The notes beneath the pieces are model-generated. The model was not told the DNA's origin, ran no database searches, and worked only from the letters and a program-made list of their open reading frames with translations. Shown piece by piece: positions 2,588-52,636 of a stretch of DNA of 64,000 nucleotides (positions within the stretch are counted from its first letter, which is position 1; each line of letters opens with the position of its first letter). The stretch comes from Dehalococcoidia bacterium (GTDB taxonomy: Bacteria; Chloroflexota; Dehalococcoidia; Bin125): contig OZ253504.1 in the NCBI GenBank assembly GCA_965262235.1, positions 2,582,354 to 2,646,353 of the forward strand. The letters are read 5' to 3'. Position numbers and translations under genes: made by a program.

Positions 2588-2785
2588 TCAGTCGCTGACC
2601 TCTTCGAAGGAGAAAGACCGGACGCCGATGCGCTCGCTGGCGTGTTCGAGGGTGATCGCGCAGAGTCGGCCGCCGGAGTCGAACTCAAGCAGCGTTTGCT
2701 CGTCAAGGTCGCGGGATTCCTCAATCGGCTCGGCGCACAGCTCGAGGTAGAGCGTGTCCGTGTCGGCGAAGTAAGTGACCTTCAT
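2588..2785 (-). CDS. DUF2283 domain protein
   Basis: MKVTYFADTDTLYLEL... matches the DUF2283 N-terminus. Start trimmed to the internal Met at 2785 (ORF track extends to 2905). Lies 20 bp downstream of the MTase gene on the same strand. Confidence 0.55.
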   Translation of the reverse strand: MKVTYFADTDTLYLELCAEPIEESRDLDEQTLLEFDSGGRLCAITLEHASERIGVRSFSFEEVSD

Positions 2786-2804
2786 GGCGTGGAATTCGTT
2801 GGCG

Positions 2805-5732
2805 TCAGATGACGAGCTTCGCGCCTGGGGGCCGCGCTTTGCCGCCATGCACGGAGGGTTCGGCGCACCACTTGGCGGCAAGTCGGCGCACTCCTTCGTA
2901 GACATCCTCGTCGAAGCCGAGCAGGTCGCAGATGACTCGCCGGTCGAGCAAGGCGCGATTGGGGTCGGCGTCCGCGAGGTAGGCGGGCTCGAGTTCTAGT
3001 TCGCGGAACTCATCGAAGATCGCTTCGGCATTGAAGAGCTGGATTGCGTTCAGCGAAGTCAGGTCGAGTATAGGCAAGTTGTGCATTGTCTTGACAGTCA
3101 TATCACCTCTCCCTGCCTGTGAGCGATTCGAGTGCCACCAATAGAGGAGCAGACCAAGGGTGCAATTTCCCCACAACGCAAAAGCGCAGTCATATGTATC
3201 GTTATCGAAGATGACGTTCGGCCAGGCACGACCTCCGGCGGCTTTTGTCTCGGTCATGGCCACTGCCAGAGGTTGAGAAGTGAACCGAAATCCCCGGCTA
3301 ACGTGTGAGCGGCTCACTGATTCCCACCGGTTAGATGCATTCAACTCCATGCCTGGTCGCACGATGAACTGCGAATCTGGGTGGCAGAGTATTTTGGTTT
3401 CCCGTTGAGCATTGTGTGTCCACAACGCAGGATAAGTCGCGGTCGGACTTGCAGAGGCTCGTTTGAACGGACCCTTGTGCGCGGTACTAATAAAGAGCTG
3501 AGAGTCGAGACCTCGACGGCCGATCTTGCCGAGAGCCGAAATTGCTAGTTCTGTGGGGTAGGCGTTCGGTGGGAGCCATAGCTTCCCATCGGAGAGCGAA
3601 GCGGCGATCTGGCCCACGGCTGCATCCGAGAGCCGCGCGGCTCCCCATCCAGCGTCAGAGTGAGGTGCCGGAGCGTCCAGAGTCTCTCCCACATGTTCGT
3701 CACCGATGGAGACAATCGTTCCCCCAAATGGTCCGCCTTCGACCTTTCGGATGGATTCATGGCGCGAAAGGGCCATCGCCATCCCGCTCGCATCGGCAAG
3801 GTTTCGGGGACGTCCGAGAATTGACGTGAACTTGCCGCGCGAGTCGGCGTCGCTCGGTACACGTTTCGCAGGTCGCTTTCTGGCGATGACCAGGCATTCG
3901 GCCACCCCGGTATCGTTGGAGAACGACAGGGCATGGTCCTCGCCCTCCGCGATGGTTAAGATCGTCAAGTCTTCATACTCCGCTGCGAGTAATGTCCGCA
4001 CTTTCTTCCAAGAAGACGCGTTGACCATTGATGCAAGCAGCACAAAAGCCATTACTCCTCCCTTCTTCAGCTTTCGATGTGCTATAGAGACGAATGCCGA
4101 TCCCAGGCCCGCGTGACCGTGATACGTAGTGCCTTTCGCCAGCTTCTTCACCTCAGCAGCCATGTCCGCTTGGTCTGCTTCAGTGGCGTTGAATGCGGCG
4201 AAAGCGGCGTTCAAGACCGCGTCGCCTGCATCAAAGTGCTTGGTATTACTGGTGAACGGCGGATTCATGATGACCAGATCGAAGCCGATGTCCGGAATGT
4301 CAACGGTCACCTGCGCCGCGGTCTCCTCTCCCGCACTGCCGGTGCGGAGGGCAGGATCGCTGGTGTTGAAGAGCGTTAACAGGTGCGATTCCTTTAGCAG
4401 CTCCAGCGAGCCGACCTGTACGCCGCCGTCTTCCTGGCGTCCGTAGGGCATCGTGTAGAGGCGCGACTGTTGATAGTCGATGTTGGGCTGCCCGCCGGCC
4501 AGAGTTGCGCCGGTGATGTGCACCGCCGAGGGCATCACGTCGCAGCCGTAGAGGACTTGCTCCATCATCGGGGCGTGGAGCTTGGCGGGATCGCCGCCGG
4601 CGCGTTCGTGACGGGCGGCGATCTGGTCGTAGACGGCGGAGAGCAACGCGCCGGTGCCACAGGCGAAATCGCCTACGCGGAGTTTGCCGATGGCGTCCGC
4701 ATCGGACCAGTCGATGTCTTGCAGTTTGGCGACCGCGAGGCGGGCCAGCAGCGCCGCGGAGGCAGGGCGGGTGTAGAACGTGGCGAGGTACTTCCGGTCG
4801 GCGATCAGGCGCTGGAAGATGCGGCCCGTGAGGTCATGCGCGTTGTCGATTCCGGCCGCGTCTATCTCTTGGGCGGTCTCGCGCAGTGCGGCGAGGATGT
4901 GCGCGGCCGCGCCGGACGGCAGTTGCTCGACGATGTCCTTGGCGATGGCGAAGATGGGGAAATAGTTGATCGCGAGGATCTGGTCCCAGGCGGAGAGTGT
5001 TTCTTCCTGCGGGTTGGCGACGCCGGGGCCGCAGACCATGTGGAGCGGTTTGACGCCCTCGTGCATGCCGGCGATTCGTTCGTGGAAGACAAGCGCGTTG
5101 GCGATGATGGCGCAGGCCATGCGGCGGGTCTGCGGCACGTTGCGCATGCCGAGCAGATCGGCGACGGCGCGCACGATTCCGCGCTGGGTGTCGCTCATCT
5201 CATCGAGCACGCTGGCGGCGCGCTCGATCCCCGCCTGGAGGGAATCGGCGGCCCGGTTCACTTCCTTCTGCGGCATCGAGACGAGCCGGATCAGGTCGGC
5301 GAGGTCCTCGATTCCACCGTCCAGCCAACCTGATTCGGGGAAGCGGATGCGCCGCTCGTCCTTGTCGAACTCGTCGTAGAGCACGCACCAAGAGAGGCGC
5401 GTCTGCTGCAGGGCCTCGTTCAGGTCAGCTGCGGTGCGCAGCGGGGTGGGATAGCGCAGCGCGATCGCCGCTTCGATGGCTCGCGACTCACCGATGACAA
5501 TCCTGCCCAGCCGGTCGGCGGCTTCTTGCTCGGCGGTGTAGGCGGGCATGAACTCCGCTTCGACGACGACGGGTGATCGGCCGGGCGCGGTGATCAGGTT
5601 GTCGAGCTGCCAGGCAGGATGTCCGACGATCAGCTGGGTGTGCTCGGAGCGAACGAGGCAGGCCCCCACCATCCGTTTCAGCAGACCGCCCAATGCGGTG
5701 TTGACGCTCGGCTCCGTCTGTTGGGAGGGCAT
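2805..5732 (-). CDS. large N6-adenine DNA methyltransferase-domain protein, Type IIG/IIL (MmeI-like) or PglX-like
   Basis: Gamma-class MTase motif I DFACGTGALL and motif IV NPPF about 140 aa downstream. 975 aa with about 340 aa N-terminal to the MTase core and about 450 aa C-terminal (TRD-like). The C-terminal half (about 3000-4100) is markedly AT-richer than the flanks. Confidence 0.75.
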   Translation of the reverse strand: MPSQQTEPSVNTALGGLLKRMVGACLVRSEHTQLIVGHPAWQLDNLITAPGRSPVVVEAEFMPAYTAEQEAADRLGRIVIGESRAIEAAIALRYPTPLRTAADLNEALQQTRLSWCVLYDEFDKDERRIRFPESGWLDGGIEDLADLIRLVSMPQKEVNRAADSLQAGIERAASVLDEMSDTQRGIVRAVADLLGMRNVPQTRRMACAIIANALVFHERIAGMHEGVKPLHMVCGPGVANPQEETLSAWDQILAINYFPIFAIAKDIVEQLPSGAAAHILAALRETAQEIDAAGIDNAHDLTGRIFQRLIADRKYLATFYTRPASAALLARLAVAKLQDIDWSDADAIGKLRVGDFACGTGALLSAVYDQIAARHERAGGDPAKLHAPMMEQVLYGCDVMPSAVHITGATLAGGQPNIDYQQSRLYTMPYGRQEDGGVQVGSLELLKESHLLTLFNTSDPALRTGSAGEETAAQVTVDIPDIGFDLVIMNPPFTSNTKHFDAGDAVLNAAFAAFNATEADQADMAAEVKKLAKGTTYHGHAGLGSAFVSIAHRKLKKGGVMAFVLLASMVNASSWKKVRTLLAAEYEDLTILTIAEGEDHALSFSNDTGVAECLVIARKRPAKRVPSDADSRGKFTSILGRPRNLADASGMAMALSRHESIRKVEGGPFGGTIVSIGDEHVGETLDAPAPHSDAGWGAARLSDAAVGQIAASLSDGKLWLPPNAYPTELAISALGKIGRRGLDSQLFISTAHKGPFKRASASPTATYPALWTHNAQRETKILCHPDSQFIVRPGMELNASNRWESVSRSHVSRGFRFTSQPLAVAMTETKAAGGRAWPNVIFDNDTYDCAFALWGNCTLGLLLYWWHSNRSQAGRGDMTVKTMHNLPILDLTSLNAIQLFNAEAIFDEFRELELEPAYLADADPNRALLDRRVICDLLGFDEDVYEGVRRLAAKWCAEPSVHGGKARPPGAKLVI

Positions 5733-5798
5733 GATTCTAGGTTAGGCGGCAGTGACTGCGCCGCACAACCGTTCGAGGACAACCGGAGATGTCACTCT

Positions 5799-6179
5799 TC
5801 ACCCGGGTTCCGCATCAGGCGGATATAGCCTTCGCGTTCGAAAGTCGTCCATGACCTCCATGGAGATGCAGTCGACCAGGCTGCAAGTCTTGTCGGAGAG
5901 ATTTTCGTAACGAGTAAGTGCTCGCGCGAAGAGGCCAGGGCGTTGCGCGACGACTTCAATGTTAGGGTTCGCATATAGACTACGGGTCAGTTTGGCGGCG
6001 GCGGCGCGAAGCTGCCGTCGCTTGTTCAAACGCGCCAGCACTTCGCTGAGCACACTGTCGGTAGTGACGATCTGCGCGTGTCCGACCGCTTCCTCCGCGA
6101 CGACGGCGGCCTCGTGAAGGTTATCCGCCGGATTGACCTTTGCGATCCAGAATGCGGCGTCAGCGAACACGCGGTGCAT
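5799..6179 (-). CDS. PIN-domain nuclease
   Basis: MHRVFADAAFWIA...IVTTDSVLSEV...SLVDCISMEVM...DD shows the PIN acidic residues. Alternative upstream start at 6227 would overlap the preceding gene. Confidence 0.55.
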   Translation of the reverse strand: MHRVFADAAFWIAKVNPADNLHEAAVVAEEAVGHAQIVTTDSVLSEVLARLNKRRQLRAAAAKLTRSLYANPNIEVVAQRPGLFARALTRYENLSDKTCSLVDCISMEVMDDFRTRRLYPPDAEPG

Positions 6180-6198
6180 CGGGAGAACACCCGTGGGA

Positions 6199-7113
6199 TC
6201 AGTGAGCGGCGCTGAAATAGTCGTCATGCCGGGCTGCCAAGTCTTGAGGCAGGGAGCCCCACTCGTCGTCAGGGACAGCTGCGAAGGCGGCGGTGACCAT
6301 CTCAGAAACGGTGGGGGCGGTCGGGTCGAACACCCAGTTTTCTAGACTGACATCGTCGATCGAATCGACGCGGTCGATGCGGTAGATTTCACCGTCGCTC
6401 CGGTAGCGTCCGAATCCGCGGACTCGCAGTTCGATCGAGTCGTGCTCGTGCAGGGCAGCTGTGATTTGGTCTTCCTGTTCCGGGGAGAAGATCGCGTTGA
6501 CGGACTCCGTCGTGCTCAACCATAGCTGGAAGGTGTGTCGGTGCACGTCGGCGGCGAGGACACGGCCAATCACGTCAACGATGTCATCAACGGTGTTGGG
6601 AAGGCGCCGGCGGAACTGTGCGCGTGCGATGTCATTGATTCGTGTCGGACGGCGATTCGCCGGCACGAATGCCAATGTAGCTCCGGAGGGAAGTCGCGAC
6701 CCAAGCTGGGCGTAGGTGTCGCAGAGGCTAGGGGTGAGTGCGGACGGCGGTTCCGTATCGCCTGAGACGGCGTCGTATGCGTCGCCCATGAACTTGACGG
6801 CCTCCGACAGTTCATTGTCGAACAGATCAAGCTGCTGGCCAGCAGTAGGCGAGCGGTCAAGGATGACAATAGTACTGCCCGATCTGATCTCGTGCATATG
6901 CACTTGTAGCGAATCAGTGAACCGCCGTGGCAATCGTTCGCGGTGCGGGTGACTCAGTTTCCACCTGGCCTTGGCAGTGTCAGAAATCGCACGCATGACC
7001 TTGACGACTTCCTCGAGGGCGCGATCGTCCAAGGCGCACGAGTCGTAGATGCCGCCAGAGAAACGCAGTTCGACGAGGGGGCTTTTGCTTTGGTCCATCG
7101 GTCCACTCCGCAC
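6199..7113 (-). CDS. hypothetical protein (304 aa), first gene of the MTase-containing cluster
   Basis: Long ORF with the lower-GC codon usage of this islet; no recognisable motif. Co-directional and tightly spaced with the PIN and MTase genes. Confidence 0.45.
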   Translation of the reverse strand: MRSGPMDQSKSPLVELRFSGGIYDSCALDDRALEEVVKVMRAISDTAKARWKLSHPHRERLPRRFTDSLQVHMHEIRSGSTIVILDRSPTAGQQLDLFDNELSEAVKFMGDAYDAVSGDTEPPSALTPSLCDTYAQLGSRLPSGATLAFVPANRRPTRINDIARAQFRRRLPNTVDDIVDVIGRVLAADVHRHTFQLWLSTTESVNAIFSPEQEDQITAALHEHDSIELRVRGFGRYRSDGEIYRIDRVDSIDDVSLENWVFDPTAPTVSEMVTAAFAAVPDDEWGSLPQDLAARHDDYFSAAH

Positions 7114-7204: not shown

Positions 7205-9457
7205 TTAGTGGGCGATCACGATCACGCCGCTTCGTTCTAGGGTGGCGAGTTCGTCGGCTCTTGAGATTCCGCTGAGGATTTCGTCGGCGTTGGAGCCGAG
7301 GATGGGGGCGGGCTGGCCGGGGACTACGGGGGTGCGGCTGAGGATCGCGGCGGGGCCGTTGGTGCGGATCTTGCCGCGGCCTTCGTGGTCTCTGGTGATC
7401 GAGAGGCCGCGGGACTGCGCCCAATCGCTCTCCATCGCCTCATCGACGGTGATCACTTCGGCGACGCCGATTCCCGCGCCGCGGAAGTGTTCGAGCCAGT
7501 GACTGACGGGATGGGCGCGAATGCGCCACTCGAGCTCCGCCTGCAGGCGATCACCTGCAGAGGCGACACCGCTGAGGCCGGGAACGCCCTCCAGCGCGGG
7601 GATGTCTCGCTCGCTCGCGCCGAGGAAGATCCAGCCGTCGGCGGCTTCGTAGAGGCGCTGCAGCGGGCCTTCGCCGAGCGCGCTCTGTCCGCGCGGCTCG
7701 GTCCAGGTCTTGCCCTCGTAGCCCTGCAGGAGCGACGACTGGAGGGTGCCCGCGGTGCGCGCCAGCGCGGTGTAGATCTCCTGCCCCTGACCGGTCCGCT
7801 CGCGGTGATAGAGCGCCATGCCCACGCCGAACGCGCCCATGATGCCGGTGCCGTAGTCGTTGATCGGGAACGGCTGGAGGGTCGGCGGATCGTCGCCGCC
7901 GTAGCGCGTCTGCATGCCCGTGGCGGCCTGCGCGAGCTGCTCCCAGCCGGCGCGCTCGGCCCACGGGCCGATCTCGCCGAAGGCGTTCAACGACGCGTAG
8001 ACGATGCCAGGGTGGCGCGCCGCGACATCTGCGTAGCCGATACCGAGTCGCTCGACGGCGCCCTTGCGGTAGTTCTGGACGACCACATCGGCGCCGGCGA
8101 CGAGGTTGTTGAAGATGTCGATTCCCGCCGTGGACTTGAGATCGAGCATGATGCTGCGCTTACCGCGGTTGACATCTTCGTGGAATCCGCCGCCCTCGCG
8201 TTTGGGGTCGTCGATCTTGATCACGTCAGCGCCGAACTCGGCCAGGGTTCGTCCGCAGGTCGGGCCGGCGAGGATGATGCAAAGGTCGATCGCGCGCATG
8301 CCCTCGAGCGCCTTCGAGAGTCGCGGTACGCCCTGGTAGGGCGCCGGCGGCTGCGCGGCAGCGACGCTCTCGAGGATCGCTTCGCGGTCGGCGTCGGGAG
8401 CGCGCTGTGCGTGGCCCGGCGCTCCGGGCGTGCGCGACATCCGCACCTGGATGCCCGGCTGCAGCATGGGGCCGAGGTCGGGGTCGTCGATCTCCACGAC
8501 CGCCTCCGACTGACGTGCATGTTCCTCGTGCAGCCACTCGGCGCTGTCGAGGCAGCGAACCGTCGGCGGGCCGGCCGCGTTGATCAGTTCTTCCCACTCC
8601 ATCGCAGGGCGCGTCTTGAAGATCTCGCTGAGGCGGCGGCGCGCCTCCGCCGCGAGTTCCGGTGAGCCGGCGAGCTGTGCCGATTGCGACCAGGGCTCGT
8701 CGAGCCACTCGGGGACGCCGGCGGCCTCACAGAACTGGCGCACGAAGTATGAGAACGCCGCATGGAAGAAGACCCAGCGCCCATCGGCGCACTCGTAGGC
8801 CGCGACCCACGGCATCTGTCGGCGCGTCGTGTCCTGTCCGATCACGCGCAGACCGGAGACGCCGACCGCCTGATAGATCGCGTCGTGCAGCGGCGACTCG
8901 ATGCGCTGGCCGAGCCCATCGCGCTCGCGTGCGACGAGCGCCATCGCGGTCGCCGTCACGCCGACGAACGCGCCGTAGACGGAGGCGATCGGGATCGCGG
9001 TGTAGATCGGCCGTGTCGAGGGCGTCCCGCCGAGCCGGGCGAAATATGTGCCCACGCCAGCGGAAACGACGCCCTCCCAAGCGGCGATGTCGCGCCGCTC
9101 GTCGCGCGCGCTGAAGCCGGGCATCGAGAGATAGATCAACCGGTCGTCGCGCGTGGTCATCTGCTCCGCGCCGAGGCCCAGGCGGTCCATCACGCCGGGG
9201 CGGAAGTTCTCGATCACGACATCGGCCGAGGCGATCAACTGCTCGGCGGTGCGCCGGTCGGCGCCCTGCTTGAGATCGAGGGCGATGCGCGACTTGCCGC
9301 GGTTCCAGATGGCGTTGGCGGGCGTGTCCCACGCGGGACCGCCGCGCGGGTCGACGCGAATCACCTCGGCGCCCTGGTCGGCGAGCAGCATGCCGGCGAG
9401 CGGCCCGGGGACCCACTGCCCAAAGTCGATTACGCGGAGTCCATCGAGCGCGCCCAT
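7205..9457 (-). CDS. tandem two-domain family III CoA-transferase (CaiB/BaiF x2 fusion)
   Basis: Two CaiB-type N-terminal signatures: LRVIDFGQWVPGPLAGMLLADQGAEVIRVDP and MRAIDLCIILAGPTCGRTLAEFGADVIKIDDP; 750 aa. Confidence 0.8.
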   Translation of the reverse strand: MGALDGLRVIDFGQWVPGPLAGMLLADQGAEVIRVDPRGGPAWDTPANAIWNRGKSRIALDLKQGADRRTAEQLIASADVVIENFRPGVMDRLGLGAEQMTTRDDRLIYLSMPGFSARDERRDIAAWEGVVSAGVGTYFARLGGTPSTRPIYTAIPIASVYGAFVGVTATAMALVARERDGLGQRIESPLHDAIYQAVGVSGLRVIGQDTTRRQMPWVAAYECADGRWVFFHAAFSYFVRQFCEAAGVPEWLDEPWSQSAQLAGSPELAAEARRRLSEIFKTRPAMEWEELINAAGPPTVRCLDSAEWLHEEHARQSEAVVEIDDPDLGPMLQPGIQVRMSRTPGAPGHAQRAPDADREAILESVAAAQPPAPYQGVPRLSKALEGMRAIDLCIILAGPTCGRTLAEFGADVIKIDDPKREGGGFHEDVNRGKRSIMLDLKSTAGIDIFNNLVAGADVVVQNYRKGAVERLGIGYADVAARHPGIVYASLNAFGEIGPWAERAGWEQLAQAATGMQTRYGGDDPPTLQPFPINDYGTGIMGAFGVGMALYHRERTGQGQEIYTALARTAGTLQSSLLQGYEGKTWTEPRGQSALGEGPLQRLYEAADGWIFLGASERDIPALEGVPGLSGVASAGDRLQAELEWRIRAHPVSHWLEHFRGAGIGVAEVITVDEAMESDWAQSRGLSITRDHEGRGKIRTNGPAAILSRTPVVPGQPAPILGSNADEILSGISRADELATLERSGVIVIAH

Positions 9458-42820: not shown

Positions 42821-43039
42821 ATGACCACGACAGAGCCCAGTCCGGCAACCTCGCAGATCAGCGAACGCGCCCGCCAGCGCGGAGTCGAGTTGTGGAGCGG
42901 CGAAGAACTGGTCGACATGCTGGACAAGATCTGCGAAGGCATGACTCAGGAAGAGCGCGAAGCGCTGGCCGACGAATTGGACCCCAAATGGCGCGACGAT
43001 GGCGGGCCTGAGTGGCGAACGGCGGACGATTTCAGTTGA
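42821..43039 (+). CDS. small hypothetical protein, possible antitoxin of the downstream PIN gene
   Basis: 72-aa acidic ORF immediately upstream of and overlapping the PIN gene. Confidence 0.35.
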   Translation: MTTTEPSPATSQISERARQRGVELWSGEELVDMLDKICEGMTQEEREALADELDPKWRDDGGPEWRTADDFS

Positions 43040-43481
43040 TACCAATGTGCTCAGCGCCATAGTGGGGCGGAGCGATGTCGGGGGCGCCTACCGAGATTTG
43101 TTGCGAAACTTCAGCGCGGTGGTGACGTATTTTGTGCGCGCTGAAATACAGGTGATCGACTGGCGACCAGCGGCATGGGACATCCTTGCAGTCTTTCTCA
43201 AAGATGATAATGCGTTTGACCCGCCAGGCTATGATGTGATCGAAGAGTATGTGCAGCTCAAACGGACAGCCATTGCGCTTGGCTTGCGCTATGGCGCAGA
43301 GCGGGAAGATCTCTGGATGCTGGCCCAGACTCGTAGCGTACAGCTGCCGGTGATGACTCACGATCGCAACGCCGCTCGCGTAGCACGGGCGGTTGGAATG
43401 CCAGTGGTGACCGCGTTATCCGACATCGAGGCGGACTACGCCCGTGATCGCGGGAGATTGGCGAGAACTCGATCGCGCTAA
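42999..43481 (+). CDS. PIN-domain ribonuclease (VapC-like toxin)
   Basis: ISVDTNVLSAIV N-terminus and EDLWMLAQTRSVQLPVMTHDRNAARVA C-terminus. Paralogous to the PIN ORF at 555-1043. Confidence 0.6.
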   Translation: MAGLSGERRTISVDTNVLSAIVGRSDVGGAYRDLLRNFSAVVTYFVRAEIQVIDWRPAAWDILAVFLKDDNAFDPPGYDVIEEYVQLKRTAIALGLRYGAEREDLWMLAQTRSVQLPVMTHDRNAARVARAVGMPVVTALSDIEADYARDRGRLARTRSR

Positions 43482-43518: not shown

Positions 43519-43866
43519 TCACTCTTCCTCAATCTCGATATCAGACCAGTCGTAAGCGTAGACCTGCGTGACCATTCCGCGCCACCAATGATCATTTTCC
43601 AGATTCAGCTGCATGCCTTCGGGCGCAAAACCCGCGCTGGGGCGCATTGTCGCCTTGCTCACCGCAATCGCAGGAAGCCATGGTCGCTGGTGTTTGCGAC
43701 AGACTTCGTCGCGGATGTAGCCCAACGGTAGGTTTACTCCTGGCGGGAACAGGCCGGTTGCATCCGCTAGCTCCTGATACGTGATTGTACGCATGTCTTG
43801 CGCGCGCTGCTTTAGTATCGCGAGCACTCTGTCGGTCTTGGCTGGAACTCTTACACGTTCGCTCAT
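43519..43866 (-). CDS. hypothetical protein with MGMT-like/winged-helix DNA-binding-type segment (no catalytic Cys)
   Basis: TITYQELADATGLFP...LGYIRDEVCRKHQRPWLPAIAVS resembles the Ogt/Ada C-terminal DNA-binding region but lacks PCHR. 4-bp overlap with the upstream CoA-transferase gene. Confidence 0.35.
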   Translation of the reverse strand: MSERVRVPAKTDRVLAILKQRAQDMRTITYQELADATGLFPPGVNLPLGYIRDEVCRKHQRPWLPAIAVSKATMRPSAGFAPEGMQLNLENDHWWRGMVTQVYAYDWSDIEIEEE

Positions 43867-45119
43867 GACAGCTCCGACAACACCTCGGCGGTGTGCTCGC
43901 CGAGCAGTGGTGGGCGCCTTGTGATTCCCCAGCTTCCCTTGGTGAGCTGATAGGGGGCGCCTGGATAGATCACTTCGCGACCCAGCTCCGGGTGTTCCAC
44001 CTTGACCTGCATGCCGCGGTCGACGAAGTGCGGGTCTTCGAGCGCCTCCTCGGGGCTGTGAATCACGCCGACCTGGAAGCCGAGGTTCTGGGCTTTGGTG
44101 AAGAACTCGTAGGCGCTGAGTTTCGACGCCAGCAGGTCGAAGGCCTGTCGGCCGGCGCCGAAGATCGCGAGCAGTTCCTCGTTGTTGCTGTTGAAGACAT
44201 CCGCCAGGGAGAACGATTCCAGCCCGGCGCCAACCTGCAGGAGCGCCGCTTCGGGAAGTTCATCCAGGAGGCCTTCCTCTTCCAACCAGCGGTAGACGAT
44301 GCCGAACTCGGCTGGGCGACGAGCCGGGATGCCGGTGTTGACGTAGCGACCGTCGGCACACTTGATCTGCGATGGCATCGACGGTGCGACGCCGGCGTGA
44401 CGGCCAGTCTGCCGTTGCACGGTCGCATGTGCGACCAACCATGAGTACGAACCGGATTCGGTCGTCACGTTGACGGATGCGTTGATATTGACGTTGATGT
44501 GCTGGCCGAGACCCGTGAGATCGCGATGTAGCAACGCTGTCAGAATCGACATAAAGGCGTAGTTTGAGCCCGTGTGATACGCCTGCTGTCCGCCGCCGCG
44601 CACCGGTGGCAACGAGTGATCGTCGTACCCGTTCATCCAGGTGAAGCCGCCGTTGGCGGCCAGTGTCAGGTCCGTGTGAGGCTCGTCGTCCCTCACCGAC
44701 CCGAAGCCGAAATTGGTGATCGTGCACCAGATCAACTTTGGGTTGTCGGACATCAGCTGATCAAACGACAGACCCAGGCGACCAACCGGATCGTATGTAG
44801 CGGTGTCGAAGATCACGTCGGCTGACTGCACCAGCTTGACGAATGCGTCGGCGTTGGACTGGTCGTCGAAGTCCATCACGATGCTGCGCTTGGACGTGTT
44901 GTAGTACCAGAAGAACAGCGATCGCTCACTGTCCGGTTCGTCGTCGACGAACGGTTCATACTGCCGCGACGGGTCGCCTTCCGGCGGCTCGATCTTGATC
45001 ACGTCGGCGCCCATGTCGGCCATCAGCTTGCCGCACCAGGCGCCGCGCTCATCACCGATCTCGAGCACGCGAAGGTCGTCGAGGGCCATCATCGCCAGGG
45101 GATTTGAGCTGGTTGTCAT
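43863..45119 (-). CDS. family III CoA-transferase (CaiB/BaiF)
   Basis: LRVLEIGDERGAWCGKLMADMGADVIKIEPPEGDP; 418 aa. Confidence 0.85.
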   Translation of the reverse strand: MTTSSNPLAMMALDDLRVLEIGDERGAWCGKLMADMGADVIKIEPPEGDPSRQYEPFVDDEPDSERSLFFWYYNTSKRSIVMDFDDQSNADAFVKLVQSADVIFDTATYDPVGRLGLSFDQLMSDNPKLIWCTITNFGFGSVRDDEPHTDLTLAANGGFTWMNGYDDHSLPPVRGGGQQAYHTGSNYAFMSILTALLHRDLTGLGQHINVNINASVNVTTESGSYSWLVAHATVQRQTGRHAGVAPSMPSQIKCADGRYVNTGIPARRPAEFGIVYRWLEEEGLLDELPEAALLQVGAGLESFSLADVFNSNNEELLAIFGAGRQAFDLLASKLSAYEFFTKAQNLGFQVGVIHSPEEALEDPHFVDRGMQVKVEHPELGREVIYPGAPYQLTKGSWGITRRPPLLGEHTAEVLSELS

Positions 45120-51442: not shown

Positions 51443-52636
51443 ATGAGCGGGGGGACGATGGCGATCACGCCTCGAATCGATGTCGATCCAGGGTTGATCG
51501 AGTGGGCGTGCGTACGGTCTCGCGTGCAGCGAGCAGATCTGGAGCGGAAGTTCAGGGGACTCCCGAGATGGCTTGCGGGAGAGGAGTCTCCAACTTCGGC
51601 GCAGCTCCAGTCGTTCGCGAAGGCAACGTACACGCCGTTTGGCTATTTCTTCAGTCCAGAGCCCCCAGCAGACGCTCTGCCTGTCAGCGATTTTCGGGTC
51701 CGAACGGGCGGGCTACTGGATCGACCTTCACCACATTTGCTGGACACGATCTACAACTGTCAGGATCGGCAGGCGTGGTATCGCGACTATCTGCAGGCGA
51801 GTGGAGAGCCGCCTGTTGACTGGATTGGATCGCAGGTCCTCGAGGGCGATCCGACGACGGCGGCGAGACGATTTGCTCGCGAAGTAGGTTTGGGCGTGGA
51901 GTCCCGATCTGGTGCGTCAACCTGGGAGGATGCGCTGAGGGATGCCCGACGGATGTTGGAAGCCGTGGGCGTATTGGTGATGGTGAACGGTGTTGTGGGA
52001 AACAATACCCGCAGGCGGCTCGATCCCGACGAGTTCATCGGATTCGCGCTGGCAGACGATCTGGCGCCCTTGATATTCATCAACAACGCCGACTACAAGG
52101 CGTCGCAGATGTTCTCGGTGGCTCACGAGATCGGGCATCTACTCTTGGGCGAGTCTGGAGTCTCCGACGATTCAGTCGGCGTAGAGCAGGCGCCAGACAA
52201 CGAGAGGTGGTGTGATCACTTCGCGGCAGAACTATTGGTTCCCGAAGCAGATCTGCAAGCGCAGGATCTCGACTTCAGGGAAGTGGCCCGAGATGATCTA
52301 CAGAGCTTAGCGCGCCGATACAAGGTCAGTAAGGTCGTGGTGCTGCGTCGCCTGCGAACGGTGGGTCTCATCGGTATTCGTCGGTATTCTGACCTGTTCG
52401 CTGAAGAGCGACAAGAATTCGCGGCGCGGCGAGCAGCACGCGATGGTGACACCGGCCGCGGAGGGAACTTCTACAACACATTCTTCCAGAGAACCGGACG
52501 CCGATTTGTCTGGGCCGTGGTAGCCAGCACCTTGGGCGGGCAGACGACATACGACGAAATGTCGAGATTACTTGGAATTAGCACGTTCGAGACTTTCGAC
52601 AAGATCGCGGCGGACTTTGGAATGGCGCGCCCATGA
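51443..52636 (+). CDS. XRE-like N-terminal region fused to ImmA/IrrE-family zinc metallopeptidase
   Basis: FSVAHEIGHLLLGE (HExxH of COG2856 ImmA/IrrE). 397 aa; 4-bp overlap with the downstream DUF4411 gene. Confidence 0.7.
   Translation: MSGGTMAITPRIDVDPGLIEWACVRSRVQRADLERKFRGLPRWLAGEESPTSAQLQSFAKATYTPFGYFFSPEPPADALPVSDFRVRTGGLLDRPSPHLLDTIYNCQDRQAWYRDYLQASGEPPVDWIGSQVLEGDPTTAARRFAREVGLGVESRSGASTWEDALRDARRMLEAVGVLVMVNGVVGNNTRRRLDPDEFIGFALADDLAPLIFINNADYKASQMFSVAHEIGHLLLGESGVSDDSVGVEQAPDNERWCDHFAAELLVPEADLQAQDLDFREVARDDLQSLARRYKVSKVVVLRRLRTVGLIGIRRYSDLFAEERQEFAARRAARDGDTGRGGNFYNTFFQRTGRRFVWAVVASTLGGQTTYDEMSRLLGISTFETFDKIAADFGMARP

Follow-up and report, generated by a model that had tools for sequence, protein, structure and literature searches.

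A low-GC block inside a Dehalococcoidia restriction-modification gene is probably an exchangeable specificity cassette

Enzymes of the MmeI and BpuSI type use one recognition domain for both of their activities, so that specificity changes readily (PMC4833311), and for the MmeI family it has been argued that this sharing makes a change of specificity safe (PMC4833311, PMC2731914). MmeI itself is divided at residues 1-155, 156-300, 301-620, 621-825 and 826-919, and Lys487, Ser488 and Lys489, in a loop of its methyltransferase domain, contact bases (PMC4833311). In modA, a Type III gene of Neisseria and Haemophilus, strains and species exchange the DNA recognition domain (DRD) en bloc and as mosaics; in modA12 the guanine-plus-cytosine (GC) content of the DRD lies significantly below that of the 5' and 3' regions, which the authors read as horizontal transfer (PMC3311624). 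The Type I S, Type IIG and Type III genes of Helicobacter pylori diversify their specificity by allelic homologous recombination at the recognition domains of orthologous loci, and their recognition domains fall into discrete homology groups (PMC3077401, PMC3983042, PMC3575425). Here we analyse a 975-codon gene, complete and on the minus strand at 2805..5732, in a stretch of 64,000 nucleotides from a Dehalococcoidia bacterium (assembly GCA_965262235.1, contig OZ253504.1, positions 2,582,354 to 2,646,353), hereafter the window. The gene is predicted to encode a nuclease, an N6-adenine methyltransferase and a recognition domain in a single chain, and a low-GC stretch within it is probably an interchangeable module that sets the specificity of a restriction-modification (RM) enzyme made of one polypeptide.

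Domain architecture and base composition of the gene

An AlphaFold2 model built from 62 homologues (predicted local distance difference test score 83.6, predicted template modelling score 0.86) placed five domains in the order nuclease (residues 1-155), spacer (156-335), methyltransferase (~336-620), alpha/beta domain (621-900) and helical bundle (901-975), a layout that, on the model, is that of MmeI or BpuSI. The N-terminal domain, encoded at 5268..5732 (all features of the gene are on the minus strand), has a PD-(D/E)xK nuclease fold with a candidate active site, D44...E58-A-E60, at 5553-5603. It is followed by a helical spacer (4728..5267), which is all-helical over residues 155-335 of the model, and by the conserved first part of a gamma-class N6-adenine methyltransferase (residues 336-493; 4254..4727; 64.3% GC), the most conserved block of the family with a mean pairwise identity of 0.77. 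Motif I, DFACGTG (residues 355-361, 4650-4670), and motif IV, NPPF (residues 490-493, 4254-4265), were located by translation and are invariant in 161 sequences; since motif I precedes NPPF, the motif order is that of the gamma class. The Type IIG/IIL architecture was found here, with a PD-(D/E)xK domain at the N-terminus of the same chain as a gamma methyltransferase and, beyond it, a C-terminal putative recognition domain. The Pfam Eco57I model matched above threshold, and PADLOC and NCBIfam returned only weak Type II, Type IIG and PglX matches.

Directly behind NPPF begins the low-GC cassette (residues 494-900; 3033..4253), with 56.7% GC, a GC content at third codon positions (GC3) of 0.61 and a codon adaptation index (CAI) of 0.37. 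It comprises methyltransferase motifs V-VIII (3873-4253; 55.1% GC) and an alpha/beta putative target-recognition domain (TRD; 3033-3872; 57.4% GC). The conserved C-terminal helical bundle (residues 901-975; 2808..3032; 65.3% GC), with helices at 896-962 in the model, begins just ahead of the motif PAYLADADP and forms the 3' homology arm of the exchange described below. Because NPPF sits exactly at the compositional boundary, the catalytic fold straddles that boundary. An earlier sequence-only reading of this DNA, which took 4400-5700 as the catalytic half and the low-GC unit as the C-terminal half of the gene, was mistaken on both counts: the former holds the nuclease-like domain, the helical spacer and no more of the methyltransferase than its first part, and the latter is an internal block, codons 494-900, ahead of a conserved tail of 75 codons.

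The compositional mosaic that this reading had reported is real and exceeds chance fluctuation. A trough at ~3000-4350 appears in the sliding GC profile of the window, and the dip claimed at 2950-4150 was borne out in existence, position and significance: 57.0% GC against 67.0% for the whole window, a z of -3.2 relative to the 1.2-kb windows of the 64 kb (mean 0.670, sd 0.031), within the lowest 0.7% of these and second lowest in rank. The depth had been overstated at about 50%; only single 150-nt blocks in the dip go down to 0.49-0.51, and the contrast with the rest is ~10 points rather than 15-20. The claim that 3000-4100 (56.3% GC) is rich in A/T runs held, with 16.7 runs of at least 4 bases per kb in the region against 3.5 elsewhere (~5 times denser), as did the near-host GC of 4400-5700 (67.1%). 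Flanks of 65-70% GC had also been proposed, correctly for the flanking coenzyme A (CoA)-transferase genes (67.1% and 69.8%) but not for the PIN-domain and P304 genes at 5799-7113, which reach only ~60%.

The dip is mainly synonymous. Along the gene, GC3 runs at 0.80-0.90 over codons 1-450, 0.54-0.70 over codons 501-900 and 0.76-0.77 in the last 75 (block 0.61, against 0.85 before it), with a median of ~0.86 for the true-frame genes in the window; GC at first codon positions (GC1) also falls within the block, from ~0.70 to 0.48-0.72. The codon-adaptation profile, a check that the sequence-only reading had itself suggested, agreed with the significant dip in GC. Scored against 28 local genes, CAI dropped from ~0.66 ahead of the block to 0.37 inside it; by segment it was 0.685 for codons 1-320, 0.63 for codons 321-480, 0.368 for codons 494-900 and 0.60 for codons 901-975; host windows of 300-400 codons gave 0.71 ± 0.066, with a minimum of 0.53.

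Evidence for cassette exchange

All comparison genomes and sequences were metagenome assemblies. Fifteen clade genes were read at the DNA level (the window gene, L001-L008 and L072-L077), together with 40 more distant relatives from metagenomes (36-44% identity), and relatives of the cassette were ranked by the per-segment identity of full-length matches. A cassette-only word search instead gave proteins of 430-705 residues at no more than 56% identity and missed the query's own protein, so no ranking was taken from it. Conservation in the family extends along the entire protein, with 60-77% identity and ~100% coverage in the top 120 database matches; named relatives are Dehalococcoidia or Chloroflexi metagenome-assembled genomes, a single-protein search of genome contigs returned three loci, and a Nitrosospira plasmid carries a full-length homologue at 37% identity.

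The two parts of the window protein have different nearest relatives. Over residues 1-470 it is 93% identical to P0005 (from locus L001) and 91% to P0004 (from L006), falling to 50% and 54%, respectively, over residues 471-975; the closest proteins in the C-terminal part, P0002 and P0003, are 78% and 75% identical over the first segment and 76% and 75% over the second. The specificity-region swapping that had been proposed from the letters is supported by this separate comparison, in which no single closest homologue was common to both parts.

The window, L001 and L006 represent one locus, with CoA-transferase genes of 750 and ~395 residues on either side and a DUF2283 gene just downstream of the enzyme. 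Flanking DNA is 94-95% identical to the window in L001; for L006 the figures are ~94% upstream and 87-90% downstream. Nucleotide similarity (blastn) to both relatives ends at 4252, one base past the NPPF codons, and restarts at 3030 in L001. Within the gene, codons 1-320 are 85-100% identical among the three, and the window gene matches its two relatives there at 90-100%. Over codons 321-480 the window gene is ~78% identical to L001 and L006 and closer to L002 and L007 (mostly 77-90%); between L001 and L006, identity over codons 361-460 is 98-100%. Codons 481-900 are only 35-68% identical among the three syntenic genes, against 57-88% between the window and L002/L007; identity to L001/L006 then recovers to 73-77% at codons 899-918 and to 87-100% from codon 919.

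Informative sites scored for the window, L001 and L002 point the same way. L001-like and L002-like sites numbered 197 and 22 in codons 1-320, 27 and 51 in codons 321-480, 85 and 363 in codons 481-900, and 41 and 12 in codons 901-975; outside codons 321-900 the counts were 238 and 34 and inside 112 and 414 (Fisher p = 2e-76). The best two-breakpoint split fell at codons 317 and 933, which delimits a tract grouping with the L002/L007 alleles (codons ~317-933; 2934..4784) that is wider than the low-GC block. Because this tract starts at about codon 317, in sequence of normal GC, the GC boundary marks the variable block of the family rather than the window gene's own junction. Codons 317-493 (4254-4784), ~20% different from L001/L006 and host-like in GC3, are by these comparisons a recombination tract with no compositional signature, one that composition alone would miss because GC3 stays host-like there.

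An independent pair of loci shows the same arrangement. L072 and L073 are two contigs of ~3.3 Mb with the same locus and flanks 93-98% identical, and their genes are ~100% identical in codons 1-475 and 901-984 but 37-67% between. In both sets (window, L001 and L006; L072 and L073) alleles at the same locus have conserved 5' and 3' arms around a divergent internal block, as an allelic recognition cassette would. In 115 pairs from the top 120 homologues, identity exceeds 85% over residues 1-325 yet is below 60% over residues 500-900, and cassettes fall into 33 groups at 70% identity where residues 1-325 form 10. Nearly half (48%) of the pairs at least 95% identical in the N-terminal part have cassettes below 65% identity. 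Segments of the backbone co-vary among themselves (r = 0.42-0.65) but hardly with the cassette (r = 0.18-0.35).

The cassette has internal structure as well. Residues 494-760 behave as one co-varying unit (r = 0.80) and residues 761-900 are partly independent of it (r ~0.4); in 13 pairs the first part differs (identity below 0.65) and the second is the same (at least 0.85). These sub-modules recall the TRD-N and TRD-C sub-domains of MmeI. Compared with its closest allele, the cassette has a ratio of nonsynonymous to synonymous substitution rates (dN/dS) of 0.07-0.12, and invariant residues form a scaffold throughout it; by these sequence measures it is functional and under purifying selection. 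Overall, cassette exchange is well supported by the sequence comparisons, which also define its two junctions, one at NPPF and one where the helical bundle begins.

Two other ways of varying a specificity gene were considered and rejected. A shufflon, or phase-variable inverting specificity gene, does not fit: there is no second copy in the 64 kb, where blastn and tblastn searches with the gene matched the gene itself only and thus returned no silent cassette copies, and no recombinase is found among the seven flanking open reading frames (ORFs) scanned. A diversity-generating retroelement fits no better, as a block of ~1.2 kb varies at all codon positions, the window holds no template repeat, and a Pfam scan of the same seven ORFs detected no reverse transcriptase.

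These observations suggest the following mechanism. From the architecture and what is known of the MmeI family, a single recognition domain would serve both cleavage and methylation, and its replacement would change both activities at once, so that the cell would stay protected. The block from just past NPPF to just before PAYLADADP (codons 494-900) exists in the population of this genome as many alleles that are 40-60% identical, and comparison of the syntenic loci shows that these move between otherwise near-identical backbones via homologous recombination in the conserved arms. Frequency-dependent selection by phages, which would keep many specificities in circulation, is the likely driver. 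The segment immediately after NPPF may travel with the recognition domain because methyltransferase loops, as in MmeI, would also contact bases.

Several points weigh against an exchangeable specificity module in an RM enzyme. With metagenome assemblies throughout, an assembler could in principle have joined a cassette to the wrong near-identical backbone. That different cassettes confer different specificities is something we infer by analogy, and since the alleles keep 40-60% identity and have a conserved scaffold in common, a site may be shared by some of them. Most members have D...ExE as nuclease motif where D...ExK is canonical: among the 161 sequences D44 and E58 do not vary, each of the 121 clade sequences, like most distant relatives, has the ExE form, and position 60 is lysine, giving the canonical ExK, in three distant relatives. 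Cleavage is therefore uncertain, and the protein could be a methyltransferase with a degenerate nuclease domain. Exchange alone also leaves the persistently low GC3 of the cassette unexplained.

The meaning of the low GC

Every clade allele of the block has low GC and poor codon adaptation as a standing feature, which does not mark a recent arrival. Each of the 15 clade genes has the dip, irrespective of cassette allele and of locus GC (0.56-0.675), with GC3 of 0.73-0.85 in the N-terminal part, 0.52-0.70 in the cassette and 0.74-0.89 in the tail. Because all fifteen have it whatever their allele, the dip is no time-stamp of recent import. The 40 distant relatives show no systematic dip, and no discordance between N-terminal part and cassette either (for example, pairs at 0.93 and 0.77, or 0.95 and 0.90); in the clade, the dip accompanies cassette shuffling.

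Recent horizontal acquisition from a lower-GC donor, not yet ameliorated, had been offered by the sequence-only reading as an explanation and now seems very improbable. The block does stand apart from the host-like rest of the gene in GC, GC3 and CAI, it is unlike that of the syntenic relatives, and the neighbouring PIN and P304 genes are likewise ~60% GC with CAI of 0.44-0.47. The dip, however, is shared by all fifteen clade genes, including the syntenic L001, L006, L072 and L073 with their other cassettes; the closest known cassette is only 75% identical at the protein level; and the proportion of synonymous differences (pS) from it, 0.65, indicates saturation. An exhaustive cassette search of 1.8 billion representatives revealed no outside donor and nothing nearer than a clade representative at 60%, and the start of the L002/L007-like tract at codon ~317, in GC-normal sequence, means that junction and composition do not coincide. 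A comparison of synonymous substitution rates (dS) between regions, intended for dating, was dropped because sites are saturated, at different levels in GC-rich and GC-poor segments.

The fall in GC1, from ~0.70 to 0.48-0.72, might instead suggest that the recognition domain, through its amino-acid composition or structural needs, brings the dip about as a side effect. Yet the largest fall, from 0.85 to 0.61, is at synonymous third positions, and distant homologous domains lack the drop, even where GC3 is high (L010 0.78 vs 0.82, L037 0.78 vs 0.75, L061 0.73 vs 0.73). On third-position data and distant relatives this cause was rejected, and we give it next to no credence.

Conceivably the low GC3 was made in place by a regime specific to this region, in which case exchange would occur and composition would be silent on foreign origin. 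Alleles too divergent for internal homologous recombination could escape GC-biased gene conversion; alternatively, recurrent diversifying selection could weaken selection on synonymous GC through Hill-Robertson interference. The co-occurrence of dip and shuffling favours such a regime, every clade allele having the dip and the 40 distant relatives neither feature. So do the number of cassette groups (33, against 10 for residues 1-325) and the fact that clade cassettes are closer to one another (mean identity 0.57, 5th percentile 0.47) than to the sampled outside relatives (maximum 0.46). A simple effect of divergence is disfavoured, though, because the N-terminal 325 residues diverge down to 49% identity and still keep a high, host-like GC3, and at the scale of a single cassette type, where dN/dS is 0.07-0.12, positive selection does not seem to be at work. 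We regard this regime as doubtful.

A further possibility, to which we give some weight while thinking it unlikely, is that cassettes circulate as a pool in a broader, mid-GC set of hosts than backbones do, so that the composition of the pool reflects an average host. Clade loci span 56%-67.5% GC and cassette GC3 is independent of locus GC; in loci of 56-58% GC it lies, by our own estimate, near the host expectation, with the backbone richer at 0.73-0.84. The mobile and defence contexts of the gene, the plasmid homologue and two homologue pairs with cassettes that are 88-90% identical, on backbones of only 68% identity, are also in keeping with a circulating pool. Against it, backbone and cassette always occur in the same gene and the same host, so cassettes would have to be far more mobile than backbones. 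The exhaustive search, moreover, found no outside donor, and the DNA-level sample comprises only 15 genes. All full-length matches of that search, proteins of 935-1150 residues, had the cassette at ~494-900, and it revealed no other architecture.

Four of the clade loci, L074-L077 (encoding P0075, P0079, P0056 and P0019), have a GC of 56-60%, and there the gene backbone is GC-richer than its surroundings. Their neighbours include an integrase, IS66/DDE transposases, HigB-HTH (helix-turn-helix), a PIN gene, a resolvase and a CD-NTase and Cap15 pair of a cyclic-oligonucleotide-based antiphage signalling system; L077, a contig of 118 kb with a name ending in '_c', is possibly circular.

Since synonymous divergence is saturated, the cassette appears to be at a compositional equilibrium different from that of the rest of the gene. 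This invites the speculative and, in our estimation, rather improbable proposal that the dip is a stable clade-wide property: a recombining module of ~400 codons with its own GC3 equilibrium in every allele and host (0.52-0.70 where the gene is otherwise at 0.73-0.85, and only in the shuffling lineage), not a footprint of foreign DNA. If so, either escape from GC-biased gene conversion or diversifying selection, through interference, would lie behind the dip, the gene would offer a clean natural test case for what keeps bacterial GC high, and it would warn against reading low-GC recognition domains as horizontal transfer. In a non-exhaustive search of the literature on MmeI, modA and the H. 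pylori RM genes we found no description of a clade-wide, allele-independent GC3 dip. As a matter of method, composition alone can neither date nor prove import here, since every allele has the dip.

Neighbouring genes and comparison with known systems

The space between two CoA-transferase genes (2588-7113) is, from its gene content across loci, a variable defence/toxin islet. A DUF2283 gene for a protein of 65 residues (2588..2785, minus strand; Pfam E = 7.8e-14) lies 19 bp downstream of the enzyme gene; it is 97-98% identical in L001 and L006, 64% identical in L072 and L073, and absent from the other loci among L001-L073. Upstream are a PIN-domain gene (5799-6227, minus strand; Pfam PIN E = 1.9e-6; ~60% GC) and P304, a 304-residue PDC-M32A-like ORF (6199-7113, minus strand; PADLOC PDC-M32A E = 1.8e-28; ~60% GC), both found in L006, L072 and L073 and not in L001 or other contexts. 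The P304 proteins of the window and L006 are 100% identical. L072 and L073 have an added 114-residue ORF upstream and, after DUF2283, an AAA_15/AAA_21 ATPase and a DUF3226 gene. We rejected P304, PIN and DUF2283 as obligatory partners in a multi-gene system, as they accompany the enzyme only in the syntenic lineage; across the loci compared, the enzyme gene stands alone, with no conserved partner.

At least three family III CoA-transferase genes occur in the 64 kb (1349-2548, 7205-9457 and 43863-45119, all minus strand), one of them a 750-residue double-domain form, which suggests a lineage with an expanded CoA-transferase repertoire; relatives carry more such genes nearby. The lowest-GC 1.2-kb window overall falls at an M78/IrrE-like peptidase gene (51443-52636, plus strand; 59%), and another low-GC patch holds a second PIN-domain protein (42999-43481, plus strand) adjoining another CoA-transferase gene. 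Both patches are probably further accessory or toxin-antitoxin insertions.

Taken as a whole, the analysis presents a large family of ~970-residue proteins as MmeI-like single-chain RM enzymes whose interchangeable specificity modules would make up a natural library. Common in uncultivated Dehalococcoidia, the family also has relatives on proteobacterial plasmids, and its members are mostly nameless in the sources searched, one being deposited as 'hypothetical protein'. Such a cassette library would be useful for predicting methylomes in uncultured bacteria and for engineering new specificities.

Among described systems, the BREX methyltransferase PglX (PDB 8c45; bioRxiv 10.1101/2024.04.12.589231) was considered and rejected, with NCBIfam PglX scores of ~17 bits against cut-offs of 500-900. 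Unlike PglX, the window protein has an N-terminal nuclease-fold domain. No Pfam domain of a BREX partner (PglZ, BrxC, BrxL and others) was detected among the genes called in eleven other loci, and the neighbours in the window are CoA-transferase, PIN, P304 and DUF2283 genes, with no BREX partner genes nearby.

The closest likeness is to the MmeI-family Type IIL and BpuSI-type Type IIG enzymes, which have the same five-domain order (PMC4833311, PMC2731913, PMC2731914, PMC3185434). The predicted boundaries are nearly co-linear with those of MmeI, with spacer and helical bundle at matching positions (PMC4833311). In structure, the N-terminal domain is matched best by BpuSI, and the full model is matched by MmeI, DrdV and BpuSI; by sequence, no significant similarity to MmeI family domains was found that would place the protein in the MmeI family proper.

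The modA genes differ in three ways: their product Mod belongs to the beta class of methyltransferases, Res is a separate subunit, and the repeats are phase-variable. Unlike the modA12 case, low GC here is common to every clade allele, which weakens a reading of foreign origin. Compared with the H. pylori genes, the organism, the enzyme family and the boundaries of the exchanged block (NPPF to helical bundle) are different, and here we saw neither movement between positions within the gene nor a tandem-repeat spacer. The underlying pattern, a variable recognition block between conserved arms that is exchanged between strains, is already well described for modA and the RM genes of H. pylori.

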